In this document: piece by piece, positions 12,277 through 58,448 of the stretch | Layout: the number at the start of each line of letters is the position of its first letter | Numbering within the stretch: the first letter of the stretch is position 1 | IMG/VR virus record: IMGVR_UViG_3300045303_000152 | Span: 32,001-96,000 of that record | DNA length: 64,000 bases | Reading direction: 5' to 3' (one strand) | Source: a virus | The notes under the pieces: generated by a model | Seen by the model: the letters and a program-made list of their open reading frames with translations, nothing else | Told to the model about the DNA's origin: nothing | Database searches by the model: none | Translations under genes and position numbers: made by a program

Positions 12277-12771
12277 TCAGCTAAAGCGGGCGAACTCGCC
12301 GTGGAATTTTCAGGCAGCTTTGCGGTAGGCGAGCCATGCTTTGAATGGAGTGTTGAAGGTACCGAGCCGGTGTACTTTACGGTTTTTAGTGATTGTAGCT
12401 TTGTACTGATGTGGACTCACACAATGAACGCCTTTGTAGTCGCTAGATTTGGTCATTCGCTTTTTGTTGGCCATGTTTTGTGAGAACGTAGCTAGTCGTA
12501 AGTTGGTCCAACGATCATTAGCAGGCATGACGTCTCTGTGTTCTATTTGATAGCCGTGTGGGGGCCATTCACCTTTTACGATCACCCAAATTAGATGCGA
12601 TGCTTGGTATCGACCGTAGTCTAACCACACTTGCCTGTGCCCGTCGCTTACGATGGTGCCGGCAATGCTTCCAGCTCTTACACGTTGTCGGCTTTTGCGC
12701 CATGTGAGCACGCCCGTTTTTGGATCGTACTTCAATATGCTGCGAACTCGTTTTATGGAAGGTTTGCTCAT
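12277..12771 (-). CDS. HNH-AP2 endonuclease with an in-frame TGA near the C-terminus
   Basis: YDPKTG, IEH.D...ND.W.NLRLAT..QN..N, YKGV, LGTF. TGA at 12310-12312 is followed in frame by KFHGEFARFS*. Confidence 0.8.
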
Positions 12772-12834
12772 TTGGGCCTGACGTTGGGGGTTGCGTAGCA
12801 TTAACATACGTTGTGCGATTTAGCTAGAACTCGG

Positions 12835-12848
12835 GTTCAAAATTGCAC
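12835..12848. promoter_or_regulatory. Palindrome copy 2 (one mismatch)
   Basis: tagaac-tcgg-GTTCAAAATTGCAC. Confidence 0.55.
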
Positions 12849-13624
12849 TGATGTTCTAATACCCCAATTTTGCCGTAAAAATTGGCGGATGTAAAATTTG
12901 CGAAAGGGCTTTTGACCCCTGGCTACTTAGATCTTTTACCGGATTTACCTTAGAAAATTATATCTACAGAATTTTGGGGCTGCCCCGCAAAGTTGTATCC
13001 GCATCTGTTGCTGGAAATCAACACAGTGAAAATTTCGAACAACCAGTCTGAGCCAGCGCTTGACATCCGTTGTATTTACATCCGAACGTCAATGCATAAA
13101 GCCTTTGATTTACTTGTCAATATGGCTCTTTTGCAACACGTTGCATTCTGCGATTGACGTGTCTTTTTGGCAACGATTTGTATTGCATCTACACTTCCGC
13201 TTCGGGCTGGCGTTGCCCAATTGTAAATAAAAGGCGACCTGTGATCCCCCGACAACACTTCAATTGAAAACCCGACATCGCACACAACTGCCATTGACTA
13301 TGGCAATCGCAACACTGATTTGCAATGCACCTACATCCCCAGCAGGTTCGCGACCGTAACTCCCTCGCAACACTGGCTCGCACAATCGCACAAACGCACG
13401 GCATTGCAACATCGAATGACTATTGACACGCACGAATCACTTCCAGGCTAGGGTACTAGCTAAAGGCTCGTTTGCTTGTCAGCGGCCACGCTAGGCGCAT
13501 TGGCTGCGTTGAGCCTTACAACTCTGTCATTGGCACAAGGTTTGCACTCGCGCACACATGCGCATGCCTGAGCAATGAGCGACCGATCACCCTGGCAAAC
13601 TCTAGTTGCAACAGCACCGCAACG

Positions 13625-13640
13625 TTAACGCTTTTTTAAC
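13625..13640 (+). promoter_or_regulatory. CtrA-box consensus match
   Basis: TTAA-cgctttt-TTAAC in non-coding DNA upstream of the early genes. Confidence 0.55.
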
Positions 13641-14115
13641 TGATTGCGCCTTATACCTTGGGCGTCGTCGGGTTGACGGCATGGGTACCTAGCGCCGTGA
13701 TGGCGTCAGTTGCCCCCCTATGAAACCCGATGCCCCAACCGGCGCCCATTCACTCGGCTTTTGCGCGCTGCTGCTGCGGGGTTTGCTACCAGCATCGCCA
13801 GTGCCCATCGTGGCCGCGTGCGAGGCATGGTCGGCCGCTAGTGCGGTCGGGCAATAGCACTCACGAGCTAGAGCACCAACGTCGCCCCATTGCTTACCGT
13901 CACACGCGCGCACCGTCGCTGCACCGTGACGCGGGCATGGCTACCGGCGCCCGTAACCCCTAGCACCAACAAACCCCAAACTTGCGAAACCCATGTTTCG
14001 CCTTCAATGCTCGGCACGCGCGCACCGTCGCCACAGCACGAGCATTGCGGCCGATACCATCGGGCATGATTGAACTAATCAGCATGCAAACCAACATCGA
14101 CGGGGGTTTTACACT

Positions 14116-14367
14116 ATGACGCGAATTGATCGGTACAAGCACAATCGCAACGTTGCCGAGCAATCGGCAACACTCACGGTCGGCTCAATTGTGCGCATCA
14201 CTAGCGAGCACAATTTTTACAACGGTCGGCTTGCAGTCATCATCGGGCACGTTCAATTCGCAATGAGCGAGCTTGATTGCTATTGGGTGCGTATCACTGA
14301 TACGCAAGTCACTTGCCTTGAACGGGCAAACGAACTGCGCTTGATTGATCGTCAGCACTCAAACTAA
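14116..14367 (+). CDS. Early hypothetical protein (SH3/KOW-like)
   Basis: GGGGG RBS; VGSIVRI...NGRLAVI. Confidence 0.6.
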   Translation: MTRIDRYKHNRNVAEQSATLTVGSIVRITSEHNFYNGRLAVIIGHVQFAMSELDCYWVRITDTQVTCLERANELRLIDRQHSN

Positions 14368-14380
14368 GGGGTTTACACTG

Positions 14381-14800
14381 ATGGTTAAACGCCCATTCGA
14401 CGGCATCAACGTTGATGCCTTGCAAGCTTGGCTCGATAACTTCGAGCGAGCGCACCCGACGACTAGCGTTAAGCCGGCCTTGCCCACTAAGGCGCAAACG
14501 TTTGCCGAGCTTGATCGACTCGCAACACCAACAACCCTTGCGACCGTGAGCATTCGCACGCGCAAGGGTTATCGACCGCTGAAGGGTTACAGCTACCCAT
14601 TCGACAGTACACCGAATGATAGCGTCGTGCATACGCTGGTGCATTGTTGGTTCATTGATTACGTCGGCCCCGACAAGCCCGCGCGCTATGGCAATGTCGA
14701 AATTTCGGCCGACGAAACGGCGACTTTGCTTGCATGGGTAGCCGAGTGGCGCATTGCGCGTCGTCGCCCCATCAAACGCGTGGCTAACTGCTATCGCTAA
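14381..14800 (+). CDS. Early hypothetical protein
   Basis: GGGG RBS 9 nt before ATG 14381. Confidence 0.6.
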   Translation: MVKRPFDGINVDALQAWLDNFERAHPTTSVKPALPTKAQTFAELDRLATPTTLATVSIRTRKGYRPLKGYSYPFDSTPNDSVVHTLVHCWFIDYVGPDKPARYGNVEISADETATLLAWVAEWRIARRRPIKRVANCYR

Positions 14801-14920
14801 CCTTGCCTCGCCTCACTTGCCTGCGATCACTCGCGGGCTTGTGGGCCGATGCAATCGCATCGGTTGCCGTTTCGGCTTAGGCCCACGGCGAAAACACTGC
14901 ACACTGAGGGGTTTACGATC

Positions 14921-15271
14921 ATGGCTCGTTCGATCAAGCATGCCAAGGCCAAGGGCGCGACCGTCACCAAGGCCAATGGCAAGGCCAAGTCGGCCAAGTC
15001 GCGCAAGGGCGCCAAGTCGCGCAAGGGCGCCAAGTCGCGCGTTGTCGCTCGCGAGTACCAGCCCAAGCCCGGTACCGGGCTCGAGTTCACCGACGACACG
15101 CGCATCACTGTGCTAGTGCGCGAAAACCCGAAGCGTGGCAAATCGGCCAAGCGCTTCGCAGGGTACCTCACCAAAAAGCCGAAAACCGTCGCGGCCGCGA
15201 TTGCCGCCGGCCTCACCCGCGCCGACATTCGCTGGGATGCCGGCAAGGGTTTCATCAAGCTGGGCAAGTAA
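14921..15271 (+). CDS. Lys/Ala-rich histone-like protein with C-terminal NPKR domain
   Basis: AKSRKG repeats; ITVL..NPKR...TV..A..AG.T..D..WD...FIK shared with 46512-47147. Confidence 0.8.
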   Translation: MARSIKHAKAKGATVTKANGKAKSAKSRKGAKSRKGAKSRVVAREYQPKPGTGLEFTDDTRITVLVRENPKRGKSAKRFAGYLTKKPKTVAAAIAAGLTRADIRWDAGKGFIKLGK

Positions 15272-15327
15272 GCTCGGCTAGTCGCGTGGTAGCGTAGCGC
15301 GTCAAACATCAGCCCACAAACTGCAAC

Positions 15328-15379
15328 GCCCACGCGCACACGGTTGCCAAGCTGGCGATTGTGTGGCGTGGGCTTTTTT
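15328..15379 (+). terminator. Long-stem intrinsic terminator
   Basis: gcccacgc...gcgtgggc followed by TTTTTT. Confidence 0.65.
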
Positions 15380-15506
15380 GTTTGTACACTACCAATCATC
15401 ATGGGGGTTCACATGCTCGACAAGCTTTGCGCGTGGGCATACCGGCTGCCGTTTCGTTTGTGCGAGCCGGCTTACCTGCGAGCCGACTACTGGCGCGAGG
15501 TGCATC

Positions 15507-15701
15507 ATGCATCGCGGCATACATAAGCTAATTCACCAATGGGTTGCTCGGCACAACGTTTGGGCAATCATAGCGTTTTGTGTACTGATGATTTACGCAC
15601 CTCGCGTGCTGCAAGTCGCGTGGCCGTTCATTGGCCAGCTAGCTTGCGCGACAATCGTAGCCTGCGCGGTCGCGGCAATCGTCGCACGCTTCACACGTTG
15701 A
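15507..15701 (+). CDS. Early small membrane protein
   Basis: GAGGT RBS; two hydrophobic segments. Confidence 0.5.
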   Translation: MHRGIHKLIHQWVARHNVWAIIAFCVLMIYAPRVLQVAWPFIGQLACATIVACAVAAIVARFTR

Positions 15702-15916
15702 ACGTTTCGCCTCACGGGCTCGCACGATGCGAGCTTGTGGGCCGACACGTGGCGCAATCATGTGTCGGGCTTGTTGCCGCGCGCCAAGTACGGCGCAACG
15801 CCTGATGAGGTTAGCCGGGTTCAACCCGTTACCCGCTAAACCTCATTGGCCGTTGCACTGAGCGGCGGGCGCGCTGGCGATTGTCAGCGTGCAAACTAAA
15901 CTCAATGGGGGTTCAT

Positions 15917-16099
15917 GTGCGATACGCAATTGTTGACTTGCGCACCGGGGAAACCATGCGCGTTTGCGTCAGCATGCTCGCAGCGTTGCGTGAGGTGCGG
16001 CGCTTCAATGACCACGCGGCACAATGGCACGGCGCCTTGTCGCGCTACGCGATTGTGCCGACTTATGACGCGGCGAACCTTTGCGGGTTCGAACTGTGA
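15917..16099 (+). CDS. Early hypothetical protein
   Basis: GGGGG RBS before GTG 15917. Confidence 0.55.
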   Translation: MRYAIVDLRTGETMRVCVSMLAALREVRRFNDHAAQWHGALSRYAIVPTYDAANLCGFEL

Positions 16100-16198
16100 C
16101 GCCTGACAAGCTGCGAGCCTCGCACGTTCGCAGCTTGTCGGCCGCTACAGGCTAGCGGCGCCTCGCAATCGTGCGAGGTGCAATCGACGGGGGTTCAC

Positions 16199-16426
16199 AT
16201 GATGCAATCGCATAGCGTCACTCAGTTGCGCCACGCCATGACTCACGGCCACTATCGCCGCATGCGCGCGGGTGACCTGTTGACGGGCTTGGTGCTCGGC
16301 ATGGCACTCGGCATGGCACTCGGCACAATCATCACGCTCGCATGCCTGCGACTTGATGAACTGACGCACAGCAGCGCCCGCGCGGTCGTGAGCGAGCGCA
16401 CGTGCATCGAGGCGATGTTACGCTAA
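16199..16426 (+). CDS. Early small membrane protein
   Basis: GGGGG RBS; LGMALGMALG helix. Confidence 0.55.
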   Translation: MMQSHSVTQLRHAMTHGHYRRMRAGDLLTGLVLGMALGMALGTIITLACLRLDELTHSSARAVVSERTCIEAMLR

Positions 16427-16881
16427 CCCGCTGCTGCCTGCTGCTACCCTCGCGAGGGTAGCAGTGGCCAGCAACGGCAGTTGTATCCGCAACACCGTTG
16501 CTTGTCGCACGCAAGCCGAGTTGTATATCAAAGTAGTTCATGTTGGAATTGCAACTTGTTGGTGTGTCAGCGGTCGCGGTCGCGAGGCTCGCGAGGGTAG
16601 CTGGCCACGGGCTTGCGAGGCGCGATGCCGCATATGGTCACAATGGGGCCTAGCGCGGTCGCTGGCTCGCATCGTGCGAGGTGCGGCACTGCCCTAGCCG
16701 CGCGCGGTCGCTGGCCACGGGCGACGCTGCTAGGGGGCTTGCGTGCGTTGCGTGACGTGCGGTCGCTGGCCAGCTCGGCAGCTTGCCCAGCTCGGGGCCG
16801 ACCGTGGCAGAGTTGTATAGTCAACAGAAGTCGAGTTTCCTCAACCTGAGGTTTCAATGCACATACATCTTCGCCTTGACT

Positions 16882-16962
16882 GTACATCTGAACCGCGTTC
16901 ATCTTGTAGCTACATTCTGAACCGCGTTCATCTTGCATATGCATCTGATCAGCGTTCAGTTG
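16882..16962. repeat. Three ~30-bp imperfect tandem repeats, each with an internal palindrome
   Basis: ctgaaccgcgttcatcttg twice, then ctgatcagcgttcagttg. Confidence 0.75.
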
Positions 16963-18379
16963 CATGTCGAACGCAGGCAGGCAGGCGGCGGCTCCTTGTA
17001 ATCGGCCTCGGTCGCCTCGGTCGCGCCGAAGTCCAGCAAATCTGAGATTTGTCTTGGGAAAATCTTAAATCTGAAGCTCGAAGCTTTTTGCCTCGGTCGC
17101 TTTTTCAACAATTCAATTCGAAACTTTCACAAACGATCCTTATGACGCCGCCCCACGCGCGGGCGCGCGCTGCCATGTTGTTGACGATTTGCTCGGCGAT
17201 GCTGGGCAACTCCTTAGCAACAGATGCAGCTTTTGCTATAAGCTCAACGCTGAGCGATAGCACTAGCCTTGGGCTAGATCTACAGCATTGTTGCAAATCG
17301 TACATCGTATGATCGGCATGCGAGGTTCGAAAAACGGTTTTTCAATTTCGATTTGGATTTTCCAAGTTCAAAATTTCCAAGTGCCAGTGAGGAAGCAACC
17401 AGTGCAACAAGTGAGGAGCGTGCTATGAAAGTGTCAGAAGCAGGCGTGCTGACATTTCAGGGGGTCAGCTTCAATTACACCCTGAGGAAGCCAGAGCACT
17501 ATCGCAGTGCGATGTTTCAATACTGCAATCGCAACGCCTTCAAGGTTGAAGATAGCAGAATATGGGGCATCGAGCTGGAACATGCAATCGAGTGCTTACG
17601 CAAGTACGCGCAACTGAAGCTGCCCGACATCATCGCCGATCAAGAGGCGATGTTTCGAGCTCTCGGCTTCAACGTAACGTGGGGCACTAACAGCAAGGCC
17701 CAACACGTCATCATCATTCACTAAGGAGAAAGGATCATGCCCGCCCCGTTAGGCAAAACGATCAGGCTCGAAACCTACAAGAAGAATGTGTACCGATGCG
17801 TAACGAACATTCGGTATCAAGAAACCCAACTGCATGAGCTAACGATGCAGTTGGCCGGAACTACAAACCTGTACCGTCAGTCGAAGCTGCGCAAGCTTAT
17901 CAAGAATAAGCACTTCACCATCGCACGCTGGCGTGACAAGTTAAAGTTCGAGAATGCTCGCGAGATAGAACCTGAGCCTAGACCAACACGAGTACGCTAA
18001 CCTGCACTGCACAGTCTGACACTCAATGGAGCATGACTATGCCTATCAGCCGAAAGACCAACCTGCCGCCCACCAAGCCCAAGGTAAAGGTAGAAGAAGC
18101 TGCGCCTACCCCAAGCGTCGAGTACAAGCCTTCTACAACCAAATACCTGTTCACGCCCAAGCATCACCGCAAGCTCGCTGAGTTCTGCGCTGCTCATATC
18201 AAGAAGGTTGAGCAGCGTGAGCGTGAGCAAGCATGGCAAATGGCCTATGATATGGGCGAGATGTTACAAGCCGACCATCGCGAGCACTTCAAGCCAACTG
18301 AGTTCTTCGCGCTGGTACATCAGCTAGTAGACCAGAAGTAAACTGCACACACTGCACAACTAACAAATGGAGCACTACT

Positions 18380-20526: not shown

Positions 20527-21492
20527 ATGAAAGCGCGCACATTCGACAAGGCCGATGTGTACGAGCGCATAACTGCTCAGATTATTAAGGACGTTGAGGC
20601 TGGGACGATACCCTGGCTGATACCCTGGTCACATTCTAAAGCCACTCAGGCTCGAGATTTGACCTTGCAAGACGTGTGGCCGGCTAACGCAATCACCGGC
20701 CACCTGTACAACGGCGCAAACGTGTTTCAATGCTGGATGCATCAGTCAAGGCTGAAGGCAGAAGGGCCACCGCTGTTCTTAACCTTCAAGCAAGCGAAGG
20801 CAGCCGGCGGCTACGTGCGCAAAGGAGAGCAGAGCATCATCGTCATCGGCTTCAACAGTGGCTTGAAGAAAGTCGAGCAGGACGATGGTACGACCAAAAC
20901 CAAAAAGACTTTCTATGCGTTCGGCCACTTCGTATTTCACATCAGCCAATGTGAGAATGTGAAGCTGCCAAAGCGCAAGCCCATAGAGCGACCCGTGGGC
21001 CTCGACGATGACAAGGCATGGCAGGCGTTCATCAAAGCTACCGGAGCAGACATTCGCCACGGTGGCACGAGTGCTCACTACAAGCCCATCGCAGACTACA
21101 TACAAATGCCGACGGCCAAGGCGTTCAAGACTAAGGATGATTACAAGGCTGTCGAGTTGCACGAGTTGACACACTGGACAAGCCACAAGACTAGGTGCGA
21201 CAGGCCAATCATGCACATGTTCCAAAGCGAGGGCTACGCAAAGGAGGAGCTGATTGCCGAGCTGGGCAGTGCATTTCTATGTGCCAAGCTGGGCGTCGTG
21301 CAAAAGACTGTGCGTCACGCCGACTATGTTGGCGATTGGCTGAAAGTGCTCAAGAACGACAAGCGCGCCATCGTGCGCGCTGCGTCGCAGGCAATGAAGG
21401 CCACAACCTTCATTGAGACGCTGGTAGGTGATGCGTTGAAACCAAAAGTGAAGCGCAAGCGTTTGAAACCATCGAAAGGAAAAAGGCGATGA
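20527..21492 (+). CDS. ardC: ArdC-like anti-restriction / ssDNA-binding protein with zincin domain
   Basis: IT..II...E.G..PW..PW, Y.G.N, FLTFKQA...GGYVRKGE, HELTHWT.H..R..R, YA.EEL.AELGSAFL, HADY...WL. Confidence 0.92.
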   Translation: MKARTFDKADVYERITAQIIKDVEAGTIPWLIPWSHSKATQARDLTLQDVWPANAITGHLYNGANVFQCWMHQSRLKAEGPPLFLTFKQAKAAGGYVRKGEQSIIVIGFNSGLKKVEQDDGTTKTKKTFYAFGHFVFHISQCENVKLPKRKPIERPVGLDDDKAWQAFIKATGADIRHGGTSAHYKPIADYIQMPTAKAFKTKDDYKAVELHELTHWTSHKTRCDRPIMHMFQSEGYAKEELIAELGSAFLCAKLGVVQKTVRHADYVGDWLKVLKNDKRAIVRAASQAMKATTFIETLVGDALKPKVKRKRLKPSKGKRR

Positions 21493-28886: not shown

Positions 28887-29234
28887 ATGAGCCTTAATTG
28901 GGAGAACGACAAATGCCGCAAGTGCAAGCTAGCGCGCACACCTGAAGGGCACGACCCATGCCTAGGTGAACTGCCGGGGGTTTTGTTCGCATGTTGCGGG
29001 CATGGCAACGGTGCGGGGTACATCTACTTCCAAAGCGGGGTGCTTATCAACTTCGGCTTTTGCTCGATTGAGCAAGTACCGCCAGAAAAGCTGGCTCAAA
29101 GCCGAGCATTGAAGCAATCAGAGTTATTCGAGGCTTACAAGCTCAGGCGATTGAACAATACCAGCATTGTTAAGCGAGATTCTGATGCATTAGTAAAGGC
29201 TAGAACATTCAGGTGGAGTAAGCAGTCGGGCTAG
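28887..29234 (+). CDS. Cys/His-rich hypothetical protein
   Basis: C..C...TPEGHDPCLG.LPGV..ACCGHG. Confidence 0.65.
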   Translation: MSLNWENDKCRKCKLARTPEGHDPCLGELPGVLFACCGHGNGAGYIYFQSGVLINFGFCSIEQVPPEKLAQSRALKQSELFEAYKLRRLNNTSIVKRDSDALVKARTFRWSKQSG

Positions 29235-29339
29235 AGGGTTAGGCTGGCAGGCATAGGCTGGGCAACCCCGTTGCCGCCCCTACGAGCCTCGGCACTGGTG
29301 CTAGGGCTGGTACTGGGCATGCAACTAGAGTGCTAACCA

Positions 29340-29780
29340 GCATTGTTGAACCAGAAGAGAGTGAATAGTAGATTGGCGGGGTTCAACACGTTACTGGCTT
29401 GAAGCAGTTTCAGCGACGACCTACAGGCGCTTTTGTTTTGCCAGAGCCTCAACTGGCCGCCCCTACGATCCGCAGGGTTTGGTTTGCATCAGTGGAGCCC
29501 CCACTGATCGAGCTACGCGCTTCCATGAGCGTGTTGCCGTATGCTCGCTGTTCGGTAGCAACCGGCCTTCAAACCGCATTGCTATATCCGGGGTTATGAG
29601 ATTTGTCGCAGTAGGTGCTCGGCAGCACCGTCGCCTTTCATTGGTGGGCGGTGAAGGGTCAAGTTCCGCTGAAGCATCATCAGGCCGTAATCGCTAGGCA
29701 GTAGGCGGCGGAGGTCACGCTTCAACACCACTCCGCTCTTTAACAAGCTCGATCAGCTATTAGCTGGGCTCGCCTAGTGT
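29340..29780 (-). ncRNA. Candidate large structured non-coding RNA
   Basis: No convincing ORF; several long-range complementary segments and at least five hairpins; one G-U pair favours the minus strand. Confidence 0.5.
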
Positions 29781-30900: not shown

Positions 30901-31650
30901 ATGGCCGACTTCAAGGTACAAAATCTACGGGTTGCGAGTATAGGCTTTCCAGTCATTCGCCTTCGCAAGATCAACGATCAAAATGTTGCCGCTTTAGCTT
31001 CTTCCATGAAGCGAATTGGACTTCAACAGCCAATCATCGTTTACCATGCCACGCGCGGGGCGATGGGGTTTGAGTTGGTCGCTGGTAAGCATCGGTTGCT
31101 GGCAGCAAAGAAATTAAAGTGGAAAACCATACCGGGGCGCGTGCTGCCTCACGATCAAGTTAGGCAGGCTACTTTGATTGAGATAGATGAAAACCTTTGC
31201 CGAGCTGAGTTAACACCAGCCGAACGTGTGGCGCACCTTGCCGAGCGTAAGCGCTTATATGAAGAAGATCACCCTGAAACCAAACATGGCAAGGCCTCCA
31301 AAAGTAAAGGCGCAAAGTTTGCGCCTTTATTTAAGGATAAAGCTTTTCATAAAGATACAGCAGATAAAATTGGTAGGTCAGCGCGAGCAGTTCAACTTGA
31401 CGCAGAACGTGGCGCAAAGATAGCGCCAAAAGTGCTTCAACGTATTCAAGGCACAGCTCTTGATAAAGGGGTACATCTCGATACATTGAAAAACTTGAGT
31501 ACTAAGGAACAGCATAAGTACGTGGACGATATGTTTCGTAAACCAAAAGAGCCTAGGTTAAAACCAACAGTCCGGTTGATAACATGCCCACGTTGTAAGA
31601 ATTGCCCTGATTGTCACGGCACTCGAAAGATCGAAGTTGAAATCGACTAA
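30901..31650 (+). CDS. ParB N-terminal domain protein with HTH
   Basis: LA.SM..IGLQQPI.V, LVAGKHRL.A.K.L, EIDENL.R.ELT; AT-richer than its neighbours. Confidence 0.85.
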   Translation: MADFKVQNLRVASIGFPVIRLRKINDQNVAALASSMKRIGLQQPIIVYHATRGAMGFELVAGKHRLLAAKKLKWKTIPGRVLPHDQVRQATLIEIDENLCRAELTPAERVAHLAERKRLYEEDHPETKHGKASKSKGAKFAPLFKDKAFHKDTADKIGRSARAVQLDAERGAKIAPKVLQRIQGTALDKGVHLDTLKNLSTKEQHKYVDDMFRKPKEPRLKPTVRLITCPRCKNCPDCHGTRKIEVEID

Positions 31651-46511: not shown

Positions 46512-47147
46512 ATGAACGTTTATGACGAACTGACTGGCGCCGTGAAACTCAGTCAGAAGAAGGGCGAAGCCGATCAGGCGCACTTGAGGAAACTGGTCGA
46601 AAAGGCTAGCGAGCTATCTGACAAAGCGTGGGAAGGCTTGTCGGGCAAGGCTCAGACTTGGGTGAACTCGGCAGTCGATGCCGTGCAGGCCCAAGAGGAC
46701 ATTCCCGAACCGGCCGGCTTTGGCCAGCCCGACGATGACGACGAGGCCGAAGAGGAGCAAGAGACTGTTGAAGCTGCCGACGATGACGAAGACGCACCCC
46801 CAAGCAAAGGAGCTAAGACTGTGAAAGCCAAGGAAGCGAAGAAGGCCAAGGGCAAGCCGGCGAAGGCTGCCAAGGCTGCCAAGGGCAATGGCAAGGCAAA
46901 GGTTGCTGCCAAGAAGAAAGAGGGTGGCGCCAAGCGTGGCCGGGCAGCTCGGCTGTTCAAAGATGATCAGCGCATCACCGTGCTCAGCAAGAAGAACCCC
47001 AAGCGCGAGGGCAGCGGCGGCTACGAGCGTTTCGAGCTCTACTCCACCGGCAAGAAGGGCATGACTGTCAAGCAAGCGCTCGATGCCGGCGTCACCAGTG
47101 GCGACCTGAAGTGGGACAGCGAGCACAAGTTCATCAAGATCGACTGA
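46512..47147 (+). CDS. Acidic and Lys/Ala-rich protein with C-terminal NPKR domain
   Basis: Paralog of 14921-15271; AGGAG RBS. Confidence 0.8.
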   Translation: MNVYDELTGAVKLSQKKGEADQAHLRKLVEKASELSDKAWEGLSGKAQTWVNSAVDAVQAQEDIPEPAGFGQPDDDDEAEEEQETVEAADDDEDAPPSKGAKTVKAKEAKKAKGKPAKAAKAAKGNGKAKVAAKKKEGGAKRGRAARLFKDDQRITVLSKKNPKREGSGGYERFELYSTGKKGMTVKQALDAGVTSGDLKWDSEHKFIKID

Positions 47148-47222
47148 GCCTACACAGCTAGCTCTGCCTACACATGGTGGCTTCATCTCCGGGTGAAGCC
47201 ATCACTGTATGAAGGACACAAG

Positions 47223-48080
47223 ATGATAGAACTGCCCCCAAAAAACGTTGCAGCCCTATGCAAGTTCGTGATCGAGCGGCAGCGTATCTACACTCGTCGG
47301 CTTGCCGGCAAGTCGAAGCCTTGGACCGACGACCCGATATTGCGGCAATATAGGTTCTGCAACATTTACCGTGAGCAGGATAAGGTCACTAAGTGGATCG
47401 CCTACAACTGGCGCAATCCGAACAACATGCACACAGACTTGTGGTTTGCCATGTTGGTCGCCCGCTACATCAACGAGCCCGGTACACTCAAGTTGCTACC
47501 GTTTCCCTTGCCTTGGAACCGGCTCAACTTTCACGATGCCGTGAGTGCTCGCAAGAAGGCTGGGCTGACGGTATACAATGCGGCTTACATCATTTCGACG
47601 GGCGGGCAATCTGTACCCAAGCACGAGTACCTGGGCAACTTCTTTGATAAGTTTTGGTGGATGCGAAAGCAAATTCGCCCACGCGAAGGCGATACCCTGG
47701 CCAATTTCAGCGAGCGGCTGGTGGCGGTGCAGGGCATGGGCAAGTTCTTTAGCGGGCAGATCATCGCTGACGTAAAGTATGCTGAAGGCAGTACCTTGCG
47801 CAAAGCCGACGATTGGTGGACATTTGCTGTGTCAGGCCCCGGCTCGAGACGCGGCCTCAATCGGGTTTGCAACAACCCCGTCGATCAGGGTTGGAATGAG
47901 GGAGATTGGCATGCGCACCTCAGTACGCTACGTCGTGCGGTCAATAAGGAGATCACAACGAAGGGTTTGGAGAAGCTGCATGCACAGGATCTACAAAATT
48001 CGCTATGTGAGTTTGACAAGTATCTGCGAGTCCAAAAAGGTGAAGGCCGCCCTAAGCAAAAGTACGATGGTATGGCGTAG
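47223..48080 (+). CDS. aGPT-Pplase1-type (5-hmdU-kinase-associated helical) DNA hypermodification protein
   Basis: ERQ.IY..R..G...PWTDDPIL..YRFCNIYRE.D, G.G.F..GQI..D, GPGS.RGL, QNSLCEFDKY.R. Confidence 0.85.
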   Translation: MIELPPKNVAALCKFVIERQRIYTRRLAGKSKPWTDDPILRQYRFCNIYREQDKVTKWIAYNWRNPNNMHTDLWFAMLVARYINEPGTLKLLPFPLPWNRLNFHDAVSARKKAGLTVYNAAYIISTGGQSVPKHEYLGNFFDKFWWMRKQIRPREGDTLANFSERLVAVQGMGKFFSGQIIADVKYAEGSTLRKADDWWTFAVSGPGSRRGLNRVCNNPVDQGWNEGDWHAHLSTLRRAVNKEITTKGLEKLHAQDLQNSLCEFDKYLRVQKGEGRPKQKYDGMA

Positions 48081-48169
48081 CTTTTCGATTGAGGATCGGA
48101 CATGCGCCATCGGCGCGGTGTTCTGGCTGTGGTGTTCGATCGGCTACTTGGCTGGTCAAGTGGGGTAGA

Positions 48170-49030
48170 ATGGACCTGATCGTAATACCTACTTGGGGGC
48201 GGGCGAAGCGGCAGCAAACTTTGGCTGCCCTCGAGAAAACAGATGTTGTGTATACCCACAAAGTAGTTCTACTTGTGCGGCCTGAGGAAGTGGCAAAGTA
48301 CCGTCACCCAAGCTATAAAGGCAAACGCATTAAGTCAGCGACTATGAAAGAGATTGACGTGGTGGCAGTGCCAGAAAACTGCGAAGGTATAAGTAAGAAG
48401 CGAGCCTATGCCTTGACCACGCTGGCAAAGCAGTACGACGCCAAGTATCTAATGATGCTCGATGATGACCTGTCATTCTGTCATCGGCCTGATTTGCGTA
48501 AGGCAGATATGCCCTATATCAACGCTGACTCTTACGGCATGCACTGGATGATCGAAACTATCACCGAGCAATTAGAAAAAGGGTATGCTCATGTCGGGTT
48601 GATTTCTAGGCAGGCCAACCGCAAGCTAGGTGTTAGGTGGCAGAAACCCGGTCGATTGATGAATGCCTATGCCTACAATGTGCCAATAATTTCTCAGCTA
48701 ATACGCAAGCACAAATTAGTGCTAGGTCGCTTGCAGTTCATGGAAGACTTTGATTTGACGTTACAGCTATTGCGCCTTGGTTATCCCAATCGCATCAGTT
48801 GCCAATTCGCCTGGACCACAACATCGAACCTAAATGGAGGTTGTAGCAGCTATCGTACCGCAGAAGCACAAGCTGAAGCCGCGCGCAAGCTGGCCAAGCT
48901 GCACAAGCCTTTTGTGCAAACGGTAGAAAAGCAGGCCAAGACCTGGAAGAATTCGTTGACTACCCGCGTCGATGTGCGGGTAGCGTGGAAGAAAGCCTAT
49001 GAGGCTAGTAAGGGAGGTAAACGTGGCTGA
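48170..49030 (+). CDS. GT-A glycosyltransferase, TET-associated / base-J glucosyltransferase-like
   Basis: IPT.GR, MLDDDL, EDFD.TLQLL..GY.N, GGCS. Confidence 0.8.
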   Translation: MDLIVIPTWGRAKRQQTLAALEKTDVVYTHKVVLLVRPEEVAKYRHPSYKGKRIKSATMKEIDVVAVPENCEGISKKRAYALTTLAKQYDAKYLMMLDDDLSFCHRPDLRKADMPYINADSYGMHWMIETITEQLEKGYAHVGLISRQANRKLGVRWQKPGRLMNAYAYNVPIISQLIRKHKLVLGRLQFMEDFDLTLQLLRLGYPNRISCQFAWTTTSNLNGGCSSYRTAEAQAEAARKLAKLHKPFVQTVEKQAKTWKNSLTTRVDVRVAWKKAYEASKGGKRG

Positions 49031-50360: not shown

Positions 50361-50864
50361 GTGGATATCATCAAGGCAACGGGTGGCCACCCAAATCAAT
50401 GGACGTATAGAGACGCACCCGGCTTGATATGGATAAACACGGTCGCTCTTAAATACGAGGGCAATGCTTGTCTTAAATGGCCGTACAGCATGGTTAAGGG
50501 AGGGTACGGGCAGCTAACTGTGAATGGTAAGTGTTGGAAAGCTAATAGATTTTTATGCATCTTAGCCTATGGAGAACCCCCGACTAACAAACATCAAGCA
50601 GCGCATACGTGCAAAACCAAGGGATGTATGACCAAGAAACATTTAGGTTGGAAAACTCCAGCCCAAAACCAGCGTGATCGAATTAAAGATGGTACTGATA
50701 GTAAGGGAGTACGCAATGGTAGAGCCAAACTAACTTTGCGCAACGTAAAGGAGATTAGACAAGCTAAGGGCAAAGTATCGCAAAATCGGCTTGCGGTACT
50801 TTTTGGCATTCACCAGACGACAGTAAGTAAAATACAGCGCAACCAACTTTGGCAAGGAGGGTAG
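50361..50864 (+). CDS. HNH (His-Cys type) endonuclease
   Basis: C..WP, GYG, AAHTC...GC....HL.W.T...N..D, AKLT, C-terminal HTH; AT-rich. Confidence 0.85.
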   Translation: MDIIKATGGHPNQWTYRDAPGLIWINTVALKYEGNACLKWPYSMVKGGYGQLTVNGKCWKANRFLCILAYGEPPTNKHQAAHTCKTKGCMTKKHLGWKTPAQNQRDRIKDGTDSKGVRNGRAKLTLRNVKEIRQAKGKVSQNRLAVLFGIHQTTVSKIQRNQLWQGG

Positions 50865-50869
50865 TACCT

Positions 50870-52000
50870 ATGGATGTAATAAGAAGTACCAATGTTAATG
50901 AGGCGTATCTCAAAGGGTTGCACCTAATTGCAACCAAAGGCGTGCTCGAGAAATCGCGCGCCGGCGACGTACTGGTAGTCCCCAATCCGGTCGTCACGCA
51001 ATACAATTACCCAATGGAGCGGGTGCTGTTCGACGTGACCCGTGATGCTAACCCCTGGTTTCATTTGATGGAAGCATTGTGGATGTTGATGGGCCGCAAC
51101 GATGCCACATGGCTGGACCGCTTCGTCAAGGACTACTCGAAGCGGTTCGCTGAGGATGATGGTACCCAGTGGGGTGCCTATGGCCAGCGGTGGCGCAGTC
51201 ACTTTCTTTCGACCAGCATGGAGTCATATGAGGAAGGCCCTATTGACCCGCTATTTGACCAACTGTCGGAGGTGGTCAGGTTATTGCACAAGAACCCCAA
51301 CGACCGGCGCGTGGTGCTACAGATGTGGGACCCCGAGTACGACCTGGGCAAAAACACGAAGGATGTACCGTGCAACCTTTGCGTGCTGCCGCGCGTGGTG
51401 AACAAAAAGCTCGACATCACCGTCTTCTGTCGCAGCAACGATGCCATCTGGGGTGCGTACGGCAGCAACGCCGTTCACTTCAGCATTTTGCAGGAATATC
51501 TTGCCGCGCGGTTGGGTGTAGGAATAGGCACGTATTACCAGATTAGCAACAACTTTCACGCTTATAAGAACGTGTTCGAGGCTAAGACCAAGCACCTGAT
51601 TATCGACCCTGCTGGACCAACCGGGCCGGCGCCCACGCCGATAGGTAAGAGTGAGTTCGTGGTGGCGCCTGCTTGGTACAGGCCAGCTGATACGTTGCAA
51701 TGCCCCTACTACTTCCACACGGCGAAGCCAACGCCCATCGTGACTGCCGGCGACACGTTCGACGATGACTTGATCCAGTTCTTCAGCGGCGATCACCCGC
51801 CGATCAAGTACTATCACAACAGCTTTTTCTCTGAGATCGCCATACCGATGTACTACAGCTTCAAGGCGTGGCGAGATAAGGATTTGACTGGCGCCTTGCA
51901 GTGGCTTACGCGCATGCCTGAGCCAAATGGCGATTGGCGCCTTGCATGTCAACAGTGGTATGATCGGCGCCGTTATGCTGGAACTAAGGTTCAAAGTTGA
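50870..52000 (+). CDS. Thymidylate-synthase homolog, probable dUMP hydroxymethylase
   Basis: RDANPWFH..E.LWML.G.ND, GAYG.R.R, DRR.V, catalytic PCN, RSND..WGAYG.N..HF, N.H.Y. Asn at the dUMP-specificity position. Confidence 0.88.
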   Translation: MDVIRSTNVNEAYLKGLHLIATKGVLEKSRAGDVLVVPNPVVTQYNYPMERVLFDVTRDANPWFHLMEALWMLMGRNDATWLDRFVKDYSKRFAEDDGTQWGAYGQRWRSHFLSTSMESYEEGPIDPLFDQLSEVVRLLHKNPNDRRVVLQMWDPEYDLGKNTKDVPCNLCVLPRVVNKKLDITVFCRSNDAIWGAYGSNAVHFSILQEYLAARLGVGIGTYYQISNNFHAYKNVFEAKTKHLIIDPAGPTGPAPTPIGKSEFVVAPAWYRPADTLQCPYYFHTAKPTPIVTAGDTFDDDLIQFFSGDHPPIKYYHNSFFSEIAIPMYYSFKAWRDKDLTGALQWLTRMPEPNGDWRLACQQWYDRRRYAGTKVQS

Positions 52001-55766: not shown

Positions 55767-58448
55767 ATGAGCTTCTTTCCTATACCTGAAAAGGTAAGCA
55801 AACAAACAGCGGCTAAAGCCGACATTAAGATGCTCCATACCCTGGAGTGTCAAGCCTGCCCGTTGTCGCAGATCAAGGGTAACAAACACCCTGACATGCC
55901 GGCAACGGGCGTCAGTAACCCGATGGTATATGCATTGGGCGAGGCCCCCGGCAAGGATGAGGATATACGCGGCCGGCAGTTCGTAGGCAAAAGCGGCCAA
56001 CTGCTTAGAGACTTGCTCATTGACATTATAGGCACCGATTACAAAAACTACTTTCGTTGGAACAACACTGTTCGCACCCGACCGATTGACAATGCCACAC
56101 CAACTTGGCAGAGCATCGAGTGCTGCCGGCCTAGCATCGTAAGGGATATCGAACAAAGCAAGCCGAAGGCTATATTTGGATTTGGCAACATACCGCTATC
56201 GTGGCTCACGGGGTATTCTGGTATCTATGCCTATCGCGGTCGCTGCATGCCCGTTAAAGTAGGCACGCACGTTTGCTGGTACTTCCCCATGCTGCATCCA
56301 GCGGCGATACTGCATGGCGTCAAAGGCTATGACCCCGACGACGATGACGATGGCAGCGATTACAATCAATCCGATCGCGAGTTCATCAATGAGGACCATC
56401 GCATACTCAAGTTCGATCTCATTAAAGCCCTGGCGTTGCTCGACAAGCTCGGGCCACCTATGATCCATTCAGCTGACGATGCCTTGAGCGGCATTGATGT
56501 GATGGATAAGTGTGACGATCAAGCCCTCGATGTCATTGAAGAACAGTTGAAGCTGTACGGCTCAAAGGTAGTAATCGGCATCGACTATGAGACCGACGCA
56601 CTGCGACCGTACAATCCCGACCGGCGAATACTAACCGCCGCCGTCAGCGATGGGCTCGGTGCGATCACCATTCCATTCGATCACCCTGAAGCGAGCTGGA
56701 CCCCCAAGCAGCGTGAACGCCTCGACCGCATTTGGATCAACTTCCTCACCACGGCCACAGCTATCAAAGCGGTACACAACCTGCAATTCGAGCTGGAGTG
56801 GACTGGCCATCGGTTCGCCGGCGACTTGCTCAAAGCCGGTAGGTGGGAATGTACGATGGTTCAAGCGTCGATCATCGACCATCGCTATAAGGGCACCAAG
56901 CCGAGCCCACTGTCGTTAGAGTTTCTGGTGCTGCAACACTTCGGCTTCAACCTGAAGAAGCTCGCAGCCGTCGAGCGGCACAACCTGATAAACACGCCGT
57001 TGCCTCACGTGCTCCAATACAATGGATTGGATGCCAAGTATCATGCGTTGCTGTTCAAGCGTCAGCACTCGATTATAAGGAATGAGAACCTACTCGTTGC
57101 CTACAAGCTCGCCAGCCGCCGCGTGCCCACGTTGGTTATGAGCCAGCTCAAAGGTATTCCTGTATCACAGAAGCAAGTCGAGGTGCTGCACGCCAAGTAC
57201 GCAGATCGTATAGAAACAACCTCAAAGCAGATCGCCGTCAACCGCACCGTCAAGCGGTTCAAGAAAGAGTACAAATTCGACTTCGACCCCGGCAAGCATT
57301 GCGTGAAGCTGTTTCACGACATGCTGCAACGTAAGGAGTGCGAGGTATTCGACAAGAAGAAACGTGATGCCAAAACTTGGTGGGTGGGTGATAAGAAAGT
57401 CAACAAGATAAGCTGCGATGAAGATGTGCTCAAGCAAATTGGCGGCGAGCTGCCAGAGCTAATCATTCGCTTGCGTAAGGCACAAAAGCGCATGGGTACT
57501 TACATTCTACCCATGCGTGAGGGCAGCGGAATACTTTGGCCCGGTAGCTATCTCCATCCGGTTTACAATCATACCTTCACCGATACCGGCCGGCTGAGCG
57601 CTGAAGAGCCCAACGTTCAAAACTACCCCAAGCGTGATGGCGAGGCCAAGGAGGTTCGCAAGGGCATCGTCGCTCGCAAAGGCCGTGTGATTGTCGCCAT
57701 CGACTACGGGCAAATAGAAGCTCGCGTCATCGCCATGTACACGAAGGATAAAACCTTCGTCAAAGCGTTGTGGGAAGACTACGACGTTCATATGGAGTGG
57801 GCCGAGCGCGTAGCCTATGCGATGCCAGGGCTAGTCGGCGGCAAGCAGTACCTTAAAGACAAACCCACGATGAAAAAGTTTCGCACGGGCATCAAAAACG
57901 AATGGACATTCCCACTGTTTTTCGGGGCCACGCTTGAGTCCGTTTGCACCTACCTGACCGAAGGCAACGATCACGACTGCAAGGTAGAGCCCGGTCAACT
58001 CAAAAAGGTTCATGCCGATTTCTGGAAGCAGTTCGGCGGCGTGAAGGAATGGCAGGAGACCCTGCGCGACTTTTATGAGGAGCATGGGTATGTAGAAACC
58101 TTCACCGGCCGGCGCCGTCACGGGCCTATGAGCTTCAACAAGCTAATCAATGCACCCGTGCAAGGGTTCACTGCCGAGCTAGTGATGGACGGTATGTGTA
58201 GGTTAAGCGAAACAAATGACCCGCTGCTGCCCCCTGAAATTCAAATCCACGATGACTTGACGTGGGTAAGCGTGCCCGAAAACAGGGTGGATGAATTGGC
58301 TGACAAGGCGCTAGATGTGCTGCTCAACCCGCCCGCGCCGTTCATCGAGCATGTCAACGTACCGATCACAATGGAGCTTAGCGTAGGCAAGAACTGGCTG
58401 GAAATGACCGACATAGGCGTGTTCAAATCAAACGAGTGGAAGCAATGA
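55767..58448 (+). CDS. Family A DNA polymerase with N-terminal family-4 UDG-like domain (SPO1-type)
   Basis: C..CPL, GEAPG..ED..G..FVG.SG, HPA; exonuclease DYET, HN..F, YN..D; polymerase TGRLS...PN.QN, DYGQIE.R, NAPVQG, IHDD. Confidence 0.95.
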   Translation: MSFFPIPEKVSKQTAAKADIKMLHTLECQACPLSQIKGNKHPDMPATGVSNPMVYALGEAPGKDEDIRGRQFVGKSGQLLRDLLIDIIGTDYKNYFRWNNTVRTRPIDNATPTWQSIECCRPSIVRDIEQSKPKAIFGFGNIPLSWLTGYSGIYAYRGRCMPVKVGTHVCWYFPMLHPAAILHGVKGYDPDDDDDGSDYNQSDREFINEDHRILKFDLIKALALLDKLGPPMIHSADDALSGIDVMDKCDDQALDVIEEQLKLYGSKVVIGIDYETDALRPYNPDRRILTAAVSDGLGAITIPFDHPEASWTPKQRERLDRIWINFLTTATAIKAVHNLQFELEWTGHRFAGDLLKAGRWECTMVQASIIDHRYKGTKPSPLSLEFLVLQHFGFNLKKLAAVERHNLINTPLPHVLQYNGLDAKYHALLFKRQHSIIRNENLLVAYKLASRRVPTLVMSQLKGIPVSQKQVEVLHAKYADRIETTSKQIAVNRTVKRFKKEYKFDFDPGKHCVKLFHDMLQRKECEVFDKKKRDAKTWWVGDKKVNKISCDEDVLKQIGGELPELIIRLRKAQKRMGTYILPMREGSGILWPGSYLHPVYNHTFTDTGRLSAEEPNVQNYPKRDGEAKEVRKGIVARKGRVIVAIDYGQIEARVIAMYTKDKTFVKALWEDYDVHMEWAERVAYAMPGLVGGKQYLKDKPTMKKFRTGIKNEWTFPLFFGATLESVCTYLTEGNDHDCKVEPGQLKKVHADFWKQFGGVKEWQETLRDFYEEHGYVETFTGRRRHGPMSFNKLINAPVQGFTAELVMDGMCRLSETNDPLLPPEIQIHDDLTWVSVPENRVDELADKALDVLLNPPAPFIEHVNVPITMELSVGKNWLEMTDIGVFKSNEWKQ

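Follow-up and report, generated by a model that had tools for sequence, protein, structure and literature searches.

A 3.2-kb island in which the trinucleotides AGA, GGA, TCT and TCC (RGA/TCY, with R for purine and Y for pyrimidine) are almost absent was found in the 64,000-nucleotide window analysed here, which comprises bases 32001-96000 of the 109,752-bp IMG/VR contig IMGVR_UViG_3300045303_000152 of an uncultured soil phage. The purge is exerted on both strands and runs through coding frames, codon junctions, non-coding DNA and ribosome-binding sites; it carries a cost at the protein level and is maintained by selection. The same genome carries genes for thymine modification, and islands lacking TC-containing words are present in other phages that encode a 5-hydroxymethyldeoxyuridine (5-hmdU) DNA kinase. 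At a probability of about one half, we propose that the island omits the sequence context of the phage's own thymine hypermodification, so that its early genes stay unmodified.

An earlier note on this DNA, made from the sequence alone, had reported that the segment from 13873 to 16485 (window positions, here and below) contains no AGA, TCT or TCC and only two GGA, at 15235 and 15949, and a direct count reproduced these numbers exactly. The words TCA (52), TCG (81), TGA (39) and CGA (66) were abundant in the same segment, in which ~103 RGA/TCY words are expected at the rate seen in the remainder of the genome (Poisson P ~1e-41). The word counts against codon-resampled controls that the note had called for placed RGA/TCY far under expectation as well. 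The extent given in the note does enclose purged DNA, but the sparse zone is wider and spans 13601 to 16809, with only five words inside (13870, 15235, 15949, 16486 and 16545) compared to ~102 under a first-order Markov model. Within this zone a run of 2,938 bp (13871-16808) is free of AGA and TCT on both strands, where ~64 are expected at the genome rate. Elsewhere in the 109.6-kb genome, gaps between RGA/TCY words reach 210 bp at most, and the genome's second-longest gap lies at bases 97006-97216 of the contig. The minimal missing word is the 3-nt RGA/TCY.

Codon usage and base composition do not account for the purge. When the same proteins were re-coded with the island's own codon usage, 48 words were obtained at codon junctions (minimum 32 in 1000 resamplings), compared to two observed, and the 1,471 non-coding bases of the island contain three words. 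The island has a G+C content of 0.60 versus 0.53 for the genome, with CGCG 4-fold high and ATA/TAT 3-fold low; its CG excess arises because codon choices are forced. The constraint also reaches the proteins. Lys, Glu, Gln, Met or Trp followed by Asp or Glu, and Trp followed by Ile, Met, Thr, Asn or Lys, cannot be encoded without RGA, and only one such dipeptide was seen in the island proteins, whereas 15.5 are expected from the phage's other proteins and 8.6 from shuffled sequences (P<2e-4). The exception is the Trp-Asp pair behind the GGA at 15235, which the note had read as a forced occurrence; the pair proved invariant in seven of seven aligned sequences, which include five homologs and the phage's own paralog. 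Codon choice in the peptide KKPKT (AAA-AAG-CCG-AAA-ACC) was also as the note described, and each of the five KK pairs in the paralog at 46512-47147 is encoded AAG-AAG. With regard to ribosome-binding sites, the note was right about the type and not about the number: five island genes, instead of six, use GGGG(G)TTYAC, and one uses GAGGT. At the same position in 31 other genes, 18 have an RGA word (GGAG in 11) and two have GGGG. Whatever its mechanism, the island ranks among the strongest cases known to us in which selection on the DNA prevails over codon choice, ribosome-binding sites and protein sequence.

The purge is kept in three metagenomic relatives (L003, equal to L012; L013; and L014), in which the island protein P0002 is 82-90% identical to that of the window phage. 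Neither AGA nor TCT occurs in their islands, which retain both GGA of the window island and show a few additional TCC on the sense strand. The relatives also preserve the word at the left boundary (13601) and the TCC further in (16486), despite differing gene content inside the island, whereas the word at 16809 is not conserved. When the 251 substitutions that distinguish the window from L012 were placed randomly, a mean of 33 words resulted (minimum 18 in 2000 trials), ~29 of them new; the actual L012 island has seven words, of which three to five are new, while a flanking control region behaved as random in this test. Divergence at ~12% of aligned sites, together with differing gene content, has left the purge intact in the relatives. 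The leaky sites in the relatives are sense-strand TCC at ~9 independent columns, with no new GGA, and this bias fits stricter protection of the template strand. Taken together, the codon-junction, substitution-placement and dipeptide tests uphold the suggestion of strong DNA-level selection on both strands and indicate that it is ongoing. No match among cultured phages was obtained when the island and 24 kb of the window were searched at the nucleotide level, and single-query searches of viral contigs with P0001 (another island protein) and with the terminase were also negative.

The genes for base modification lie some distance downstream. A 5-hmdU DNA kinase (47193-48080, plus strand; PF18723, E 1.4e-43), which is the candidate writer of the context purged from the island, adjoins a TET-associated glycosyltransferase (48089-49030, plus strand; PF20691, E 2e-14), and a thymidylate-synthase homolog was identified by profile match at 50849-52000 on the plus strand (phrog_5131, E 1e-101; PF00303, E 5e-22). 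From its sequence, the latter is presumed to be a dUMP hydroxymethylase, a family in which sequence here does not separate hydroxymethylase from methylase. An HD hydrolase is also encoded. Directly upstream of the kinase, on the plus strand, the gene at 46512-47147 encodes a paralog of the P0002 C-terminal domain (50% identity), and this order of paralog and then kinase is kept in the distant relatives L016, L018 and L022. A family A DNA polymerase (55767-58448, plus strand) carries an N-terminal uracil-DNA glycosylase domain by domain match; such fusions have been tied to 5-hydroxymethyluracil (hmU) metabolism (PMC13229309; a 2025 preprint). The genome gave no match to Tet_JBP (PF12851), C5 methylase (PF00145) or N6/N4 methylases, nor to TGT/DpdA (PF01702), for which control genomes were matched; these negatives are informative for the four families that matched in control genomes. 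Since only thymine-directed modification genes were found, thymine is the only base of the word pair that the phage is equipped to modify. On the same grounds we rejected 7-deazaguanine at GA contexts, as in phages 9g and CAjan, for lack of a DpdA/TGT gene, and hypermodification of cytosine by a methylase and TET enzyme, for lack of PF00145 and PF12851 matches.

We gathered loci and whole records via the kinase and scanned all strand-symmetric 2-3-nt words, degenerate forms included, for improbable gaps. Three further phages have strong islands (P from 1e-26 to 1e-44). In G002 (50 kb), an island of 1,342 bp contains TCT, TCC and TCA 0, 0 and 1 times versus 29, 27 and 28 expected, with TCG kept; in G021 (44 kb), the corresponding counts over 855 bp are 0, 0 and 2 versus 22, 22 and 23; and in G013 (60 kb), the TC/GA step itself occurs nine times in 989 bp versus 131 expected. 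A weaker case of 399 bp was seen in G015. A T-C core is common to all strong islands, and TG is avoided in none of these three. All that G002, G021 and G013 have in common with the window phage is the kinase (46-48% identity) and the synthase homolog; its terminase, portal, polymerase and glycosyltransferase have no match in them. The genes of the G002 island are on the strand opposite to the rest of that genome, and the purge is still symmetric. Each of the four islands encodes a protein with a Lys/Ala-rich N-terminal tail; homology between these proteins across the four lineages was not supported. The G013 protein (28984-29484, minus strand, equal to L201:8984-9484) has 166 aa with no Glu and one Asp, a near-lack that follows because the TC/GA step is banned, and its ribosome-binding site, AAGGGGTACACA, is of the GGGG type, like those of the window island. 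The word purged covers 8% of thymines in the window phage (TCY) and 14-29% in G002, G021 and G013 (TCH, where H is any base but G, or TC). Among controls, no TC-type island was found in 18 whole kinase-free genomes (957 kb) or in 80 terminase-related loci (974 kb). We found no published description of such word-purged islands.

According to the reading that we favour, thymine would enter the DNA as hmU by way of the thymidylate-synthase homolog, and the kinase, the TET-associated glycosyltransferase or both would then decorate hmU only in one short context, which in the window phage would be T followed by C and then a pyrimidine, on either strand. As TCY is lacking on both strands, the bulky mark would be absent, in virion DNA, from ~3 kb that hold the leader and six small genes with their ribosome-binding sites. 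The likeliest benefit, we infer, lies in transcription of the incoming genome: host RNA polymerase in its unaltered form, along with other proteins of the host, could use the first genes immediately on entry of the fully modified genome, and the rest would be read at a later stage, either from newly made DNA or with phage-adapted machinery. Avoidance of the phage's own thymine modification was one of two alternatives that the note had left side by side, and it is the better supported of them, given the thymine-only modification genes, the TC-word islands in phages that share kinase and synthase, and the published T-G/C contexts. In phages M6, ViI and phiW-14, restriction-resistant sites imply writing at T before G or C (PMC6449724), and SH-Ab 15599 is modified mainly at TG and less at TC, which matches its 14% of modified thymines (PMC13458397). 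The published 5-hmdU-kinase-pathway marks of these four phages lie at T before G or C and take in 14-50% of thymines (PMC8989533, PMC6449724, PMC13458397). Likeness to M6 extends to gene order, with kinase, thymidylate-synthase homolog and HD hydrolase in the same succession; unlike in M6, to whose kinase it is only ~32% identical, the kinase of the window phage is paired with a TET-associated glycosyltransferase. No modification-free island was found described for M6, ViI, phiW-14 or SH-Ab 15599. A second parallel is provided by phage thymine dioxygenases, of which 5mYOX97 prefers NTC and 5mYOX176 prefers NTG, and which associate with glycosyltransferases and ParB-like genes (PMC13229309). 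These, too, are thymine-modifying enzymes that read 2-3-nt contexts including T-C, and the window phage likewise has a glycosyltransferase as well as a ParB_N gene (30901-31650); unlike in the 5mYOX phages, no Tet_JBP dioxygenase was detected in its genome, and hmU presumably comes from the nucleotide pool. Somewhat short of even odds, and tentatively, we extend the proposal to 5-hmdU-kinase phages at large: they would split their genomes by sequence alone, deleting the 2-3-nt context recognised by their own enzymes (TCY in the window phage, TCH or TC in other lineages) and thereby leaving an unmodified immediate-early module, such that the purged word is a read-out of enzyme specificity and the mark acts both as a switch between gene classes and as a shield.

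Several observations weigh against this reading. A strong island is present in only four of 28 whole kinase-bearing records, the 24 others having none, and no island was seen in the first 50 kb of M6 or of RHph_I65. By itself, the difference between four of 28 and none of 18 controls does not reach significance, and it is therefore the common TC core, not frequency, that ties the islands to the kinase. RGA/TCY is mildly scarce genome-wide, at 0.55-0.82 of Markov expectation, which is not obviously expected of a protective mark. The DNA of M6, ViI and phiW-14 is transcribed though heavily modified, so modification need not block the host polymerase. The early timing of the island is deduced only from its position and the size of its genes. 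Finally, we infer each of three steps, namely that TCY is the context written, that the island is unmodified and why this would help. Flanking of GANTC sites was considered as evidence of protection and not counted: outside the island, two of 57 such sites in the genome are unflanked by RGA/TCY versus 27.9 expected, and kinase-free controls are biased likewise, if more weakly. GA....TC hexamers are also nearly always flanked, and GACGTC, GAATTC and GAGCTC are under-represented outside the island.

Alternatively, the purge could serve to evade a host defence whose target is RGA/TCY, or a site containing it, in the DNA first exposed to the host, as in T5 first-step transfer or in Autographiviridae; the island would enter or be exposed ahead of the making of a protective function, so that it alone would need to lack the word. 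We consider this unlikely. Locally site-free early DNA is an established strategy, since missing restriction sites decide sensitivity in T5/BF23 first-step-transfer DNA and in the leading region of Autographiviridae (PMC10644984, PMC12455610). The island resembles these systems in being a delimited block of small early genes without a word that the genome uses elsewhere, with repeat-rich non-coding DNA after it, and its repeat- and palindrome-rich non-coding trailer recalls the T5/BF23 boundary between first and second step (PMC10644984). In addition, the G013 island lies directly upstream of a putative large terminase ORF, a usual neighbourhood of genome ends, and an anti-restriction-family gene is found 4 kb downstream of the window island. 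In those systems, however, the avoided sites are defined host sites of 4-13 bp and the first-injected terminus is mapped, whereas the word avoided here has 3 nt (in G013, 2 nt), on a circular map, and its removal has altered codon pairs as well as ribosome-binding sites and proteins. The 2-7 sites tolerated per island would still permit cutting by a site-specific nuclease, and, as the TC core recurs in unrelated phages whose hosts need not match, a phage-borne determinant fits better.

The note's placement of the island at the leading end of the genome did not find support. The contig ends repeat (bases 1-149 equal 109604-109752 with one mismatch), which closes a circular map of 109,603 bp, although the record gives it as linear and 85% complete; the source run, assembled independently, yielded 109,618 bp. 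The portal is Mu-like, and the large terminase is nearest to those of Pam3, Rhizobium phages and 9NA (39-46% identity). Phage 9NA is a headful packager, and the circular map together with a 9NA-like terminase makes a fixed leading end doubtful. From 8.6 kb the late genes are directed leftward, and from 9.2 kb other genes are directed rightward; ~4.4 kb of DNA with normal word density separates this strand switch from the island, a further point against escape in first-exposed DNA. The host systems that the note had suggested (restriction-modification, BREX-like or DarT-like) fared no better. To our knowledge, no defence reads a 2-3-nt word, and no restriction-modification or BREX system has a 3-nt site; avoidance of the DarT motif TNTC was rejected, as 40 TNTC are left in the island versus 76 expected.

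A TC-specific enzyme acting on the exposed single strands of heavily transcribed early DNA, either a 5'-TC cytosine deaminase or a thymine ADP-ribosyltransferase, would explain the T-C core common to four phage lineages, and the uracil-DNA glycosylase domain on the phage polymerase could be cited in its favour, even though such fusions elsewhere are tied to hmU (PMC13229309). We judge it distinctly improbable: the residual TNTC count speaks against it, as does the retention or enrichment of TCG and, in the window phage, of TCA. The islands are G+C-richer than their own genomes and TT/AA is not raised, which contradicts decay by deamination. We know of no such anti-phage TC-specific DNA deaminase.

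Selection at the RNA level appears less credible still, and very improbable in absolute terms. Under it, early messages would avoid RGA/UCY on account of a RegB-like or toxin endoribonuclease, or of words resembling the Shine-Dalgarno or anti-Shine-Dalgarno sequence. T4 RegB cuts GGAG in early messages, and both the use of GGGG in place of GGAG ribosome-binding sites and the stricter exclusion of sense-strand GGA than of sense-strand TCC in the relatives would agree with such selection. Yet the four words form two exact reverse-complement pairs, as expected of double-stranded DNA and not of RNA, the non-coding leader and trailer are purged too, and the purge is symmetric again in G002, where the island genes lie on the opposite strand. 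Lastly, a functionless by-product of foreign origin, odd composition or mutational bias, to which the higher G+C, the CGCG excess and the adjoining HNH homing-type endonuclease might point, is scarcely tenable, since composition at 60% G+C predicts ~100 words, the purge is kept in relatives diverged by ~12% with differing gene content, protein dipeptides are shaped by it, and the CG excess follows from forced codons.

The island itself begins within a divergent non-coding leader of 1.3 kb (12808-14115), already purged from 13602 onward, between the first island gene and two minus-strand genes, the nearer of which (12310-12807; phrog_99, E 9e-49) is the HNH endonuclease. The leader presumably holds the island promoter or promoters; a scan for consensus promoters and terminators gave no more matches than in shuffled sequence. 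Six plus-strand genes of 60-139 aa follow, and a seventh ORF of 37 aa is doubtful. Five of the six show an excess of third-position or synonymous change versus the relatives, and the sixth is replaced in them. The first gene (14116-14367, 83 aa) has no family match and is supported as coding by a third-position excess of differences. P0001 (14381-14800, 139 aa) likewise has no family match, and the relatives have other, equally word-free DNA in its place; a protein atlas search with P0001 gave weak leads only, with a low shared-feature count. P0002 (14921-15271, 116 aa), which carries the Trp-Asp pair, has a Lys-rich disordered tail followed by a small domain. The predicted fold of this C-terminal domain, strand-helix-helix-helix-strand, was confidently modelled; comparison of the model with the PDB gave no significant match, and the weak rows were winged-helix inserts. 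The remaining genes encode a hydrophobic protein of 64 aa with the GAGGT ribosome-binding site (15507-15701), a protein of 60 aa with a GTG start (15917-16099), and a protein of 75 aa with a hydrophobic middle (16199-16426), in which changes versus the relatives are mostly synonymous. The 60-aa gene has 10 synonymous and two non-synonymous codon changes versus a relative and contains the second GGA (15949), which is conserved. Phrogs and Pfam scans of the island proteins gave no match.

Between these last genes are two hairpin-rich intergenic elements that are more conserved than the genes: one at 15702-15916 on the plus strand (94%, above its flanking genes) and a second at 16100-16198 (92% identical to the relatives). 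The motifs CGCCTCAC...GCTTGTGGGCCG are common to both. They probably represent an RNA-level element between gene cassettes, possibly with a role in RNA processing or regulation. The island is closed by the non-coding trailer (16427-17352, 0.9 kb), which has a hairpin at 16428-16477 and tandem 29-mers at 16887-16944. At the right edge, AGTTGTAT motifs are located at ~16479, 16519 and 16811 and may be promoter elements; AGTTGTAT recurs in a 334-358-bp RGA/TCY-free intergenic stretch of distant relatives (L016:6018-6376; kinase 56% identical). Approximately 0.9 kb past the window end, at bases 96930-97030 of the contig, are two hairpins whose C-rich loops (CCCCCG) complement the GGGGG of the island's ribosome-binding sites. 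They adjoin the genome's second-longest RGA/TCY gap and could belong to a small RNA by which the early genes are switched off. The anti-restriction-family gene downstream (20527-21492, plus strand) encodes a 321-aa protein of phrog_7245, 'anti-restriction protein' (E 4.5e-70). Near the start of the window, a single minus-strand ORF (656-1729) combines ChaB, anti-CBASS Acb1 (PF23474, E 2e-38) and XkdF-type prohead protease domains.

Genome-wide avoidance of restriction sites or protospacer-adjacent motifs also removes a short word from both strands, but it is partial and spread over the genome, whereas the depletion described here is almost absolute, limited to 3 kb and sharply bounded. If the island does omit the context of the phage's own thymine modification, then DNA hypermodification has a cost, and one that phages have solved in the sequence itself. 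The specificity of uncharacterised thymine-modifying enzymes would then be predictable from genomes alone, and immediate-early modules would be identifiable in uncultured phages. Hydroxymethyluracil sorts phage genes into temporal classes in the case of SPO1 middle transcription, and the island would suggest that bulky DNA marks do the same.

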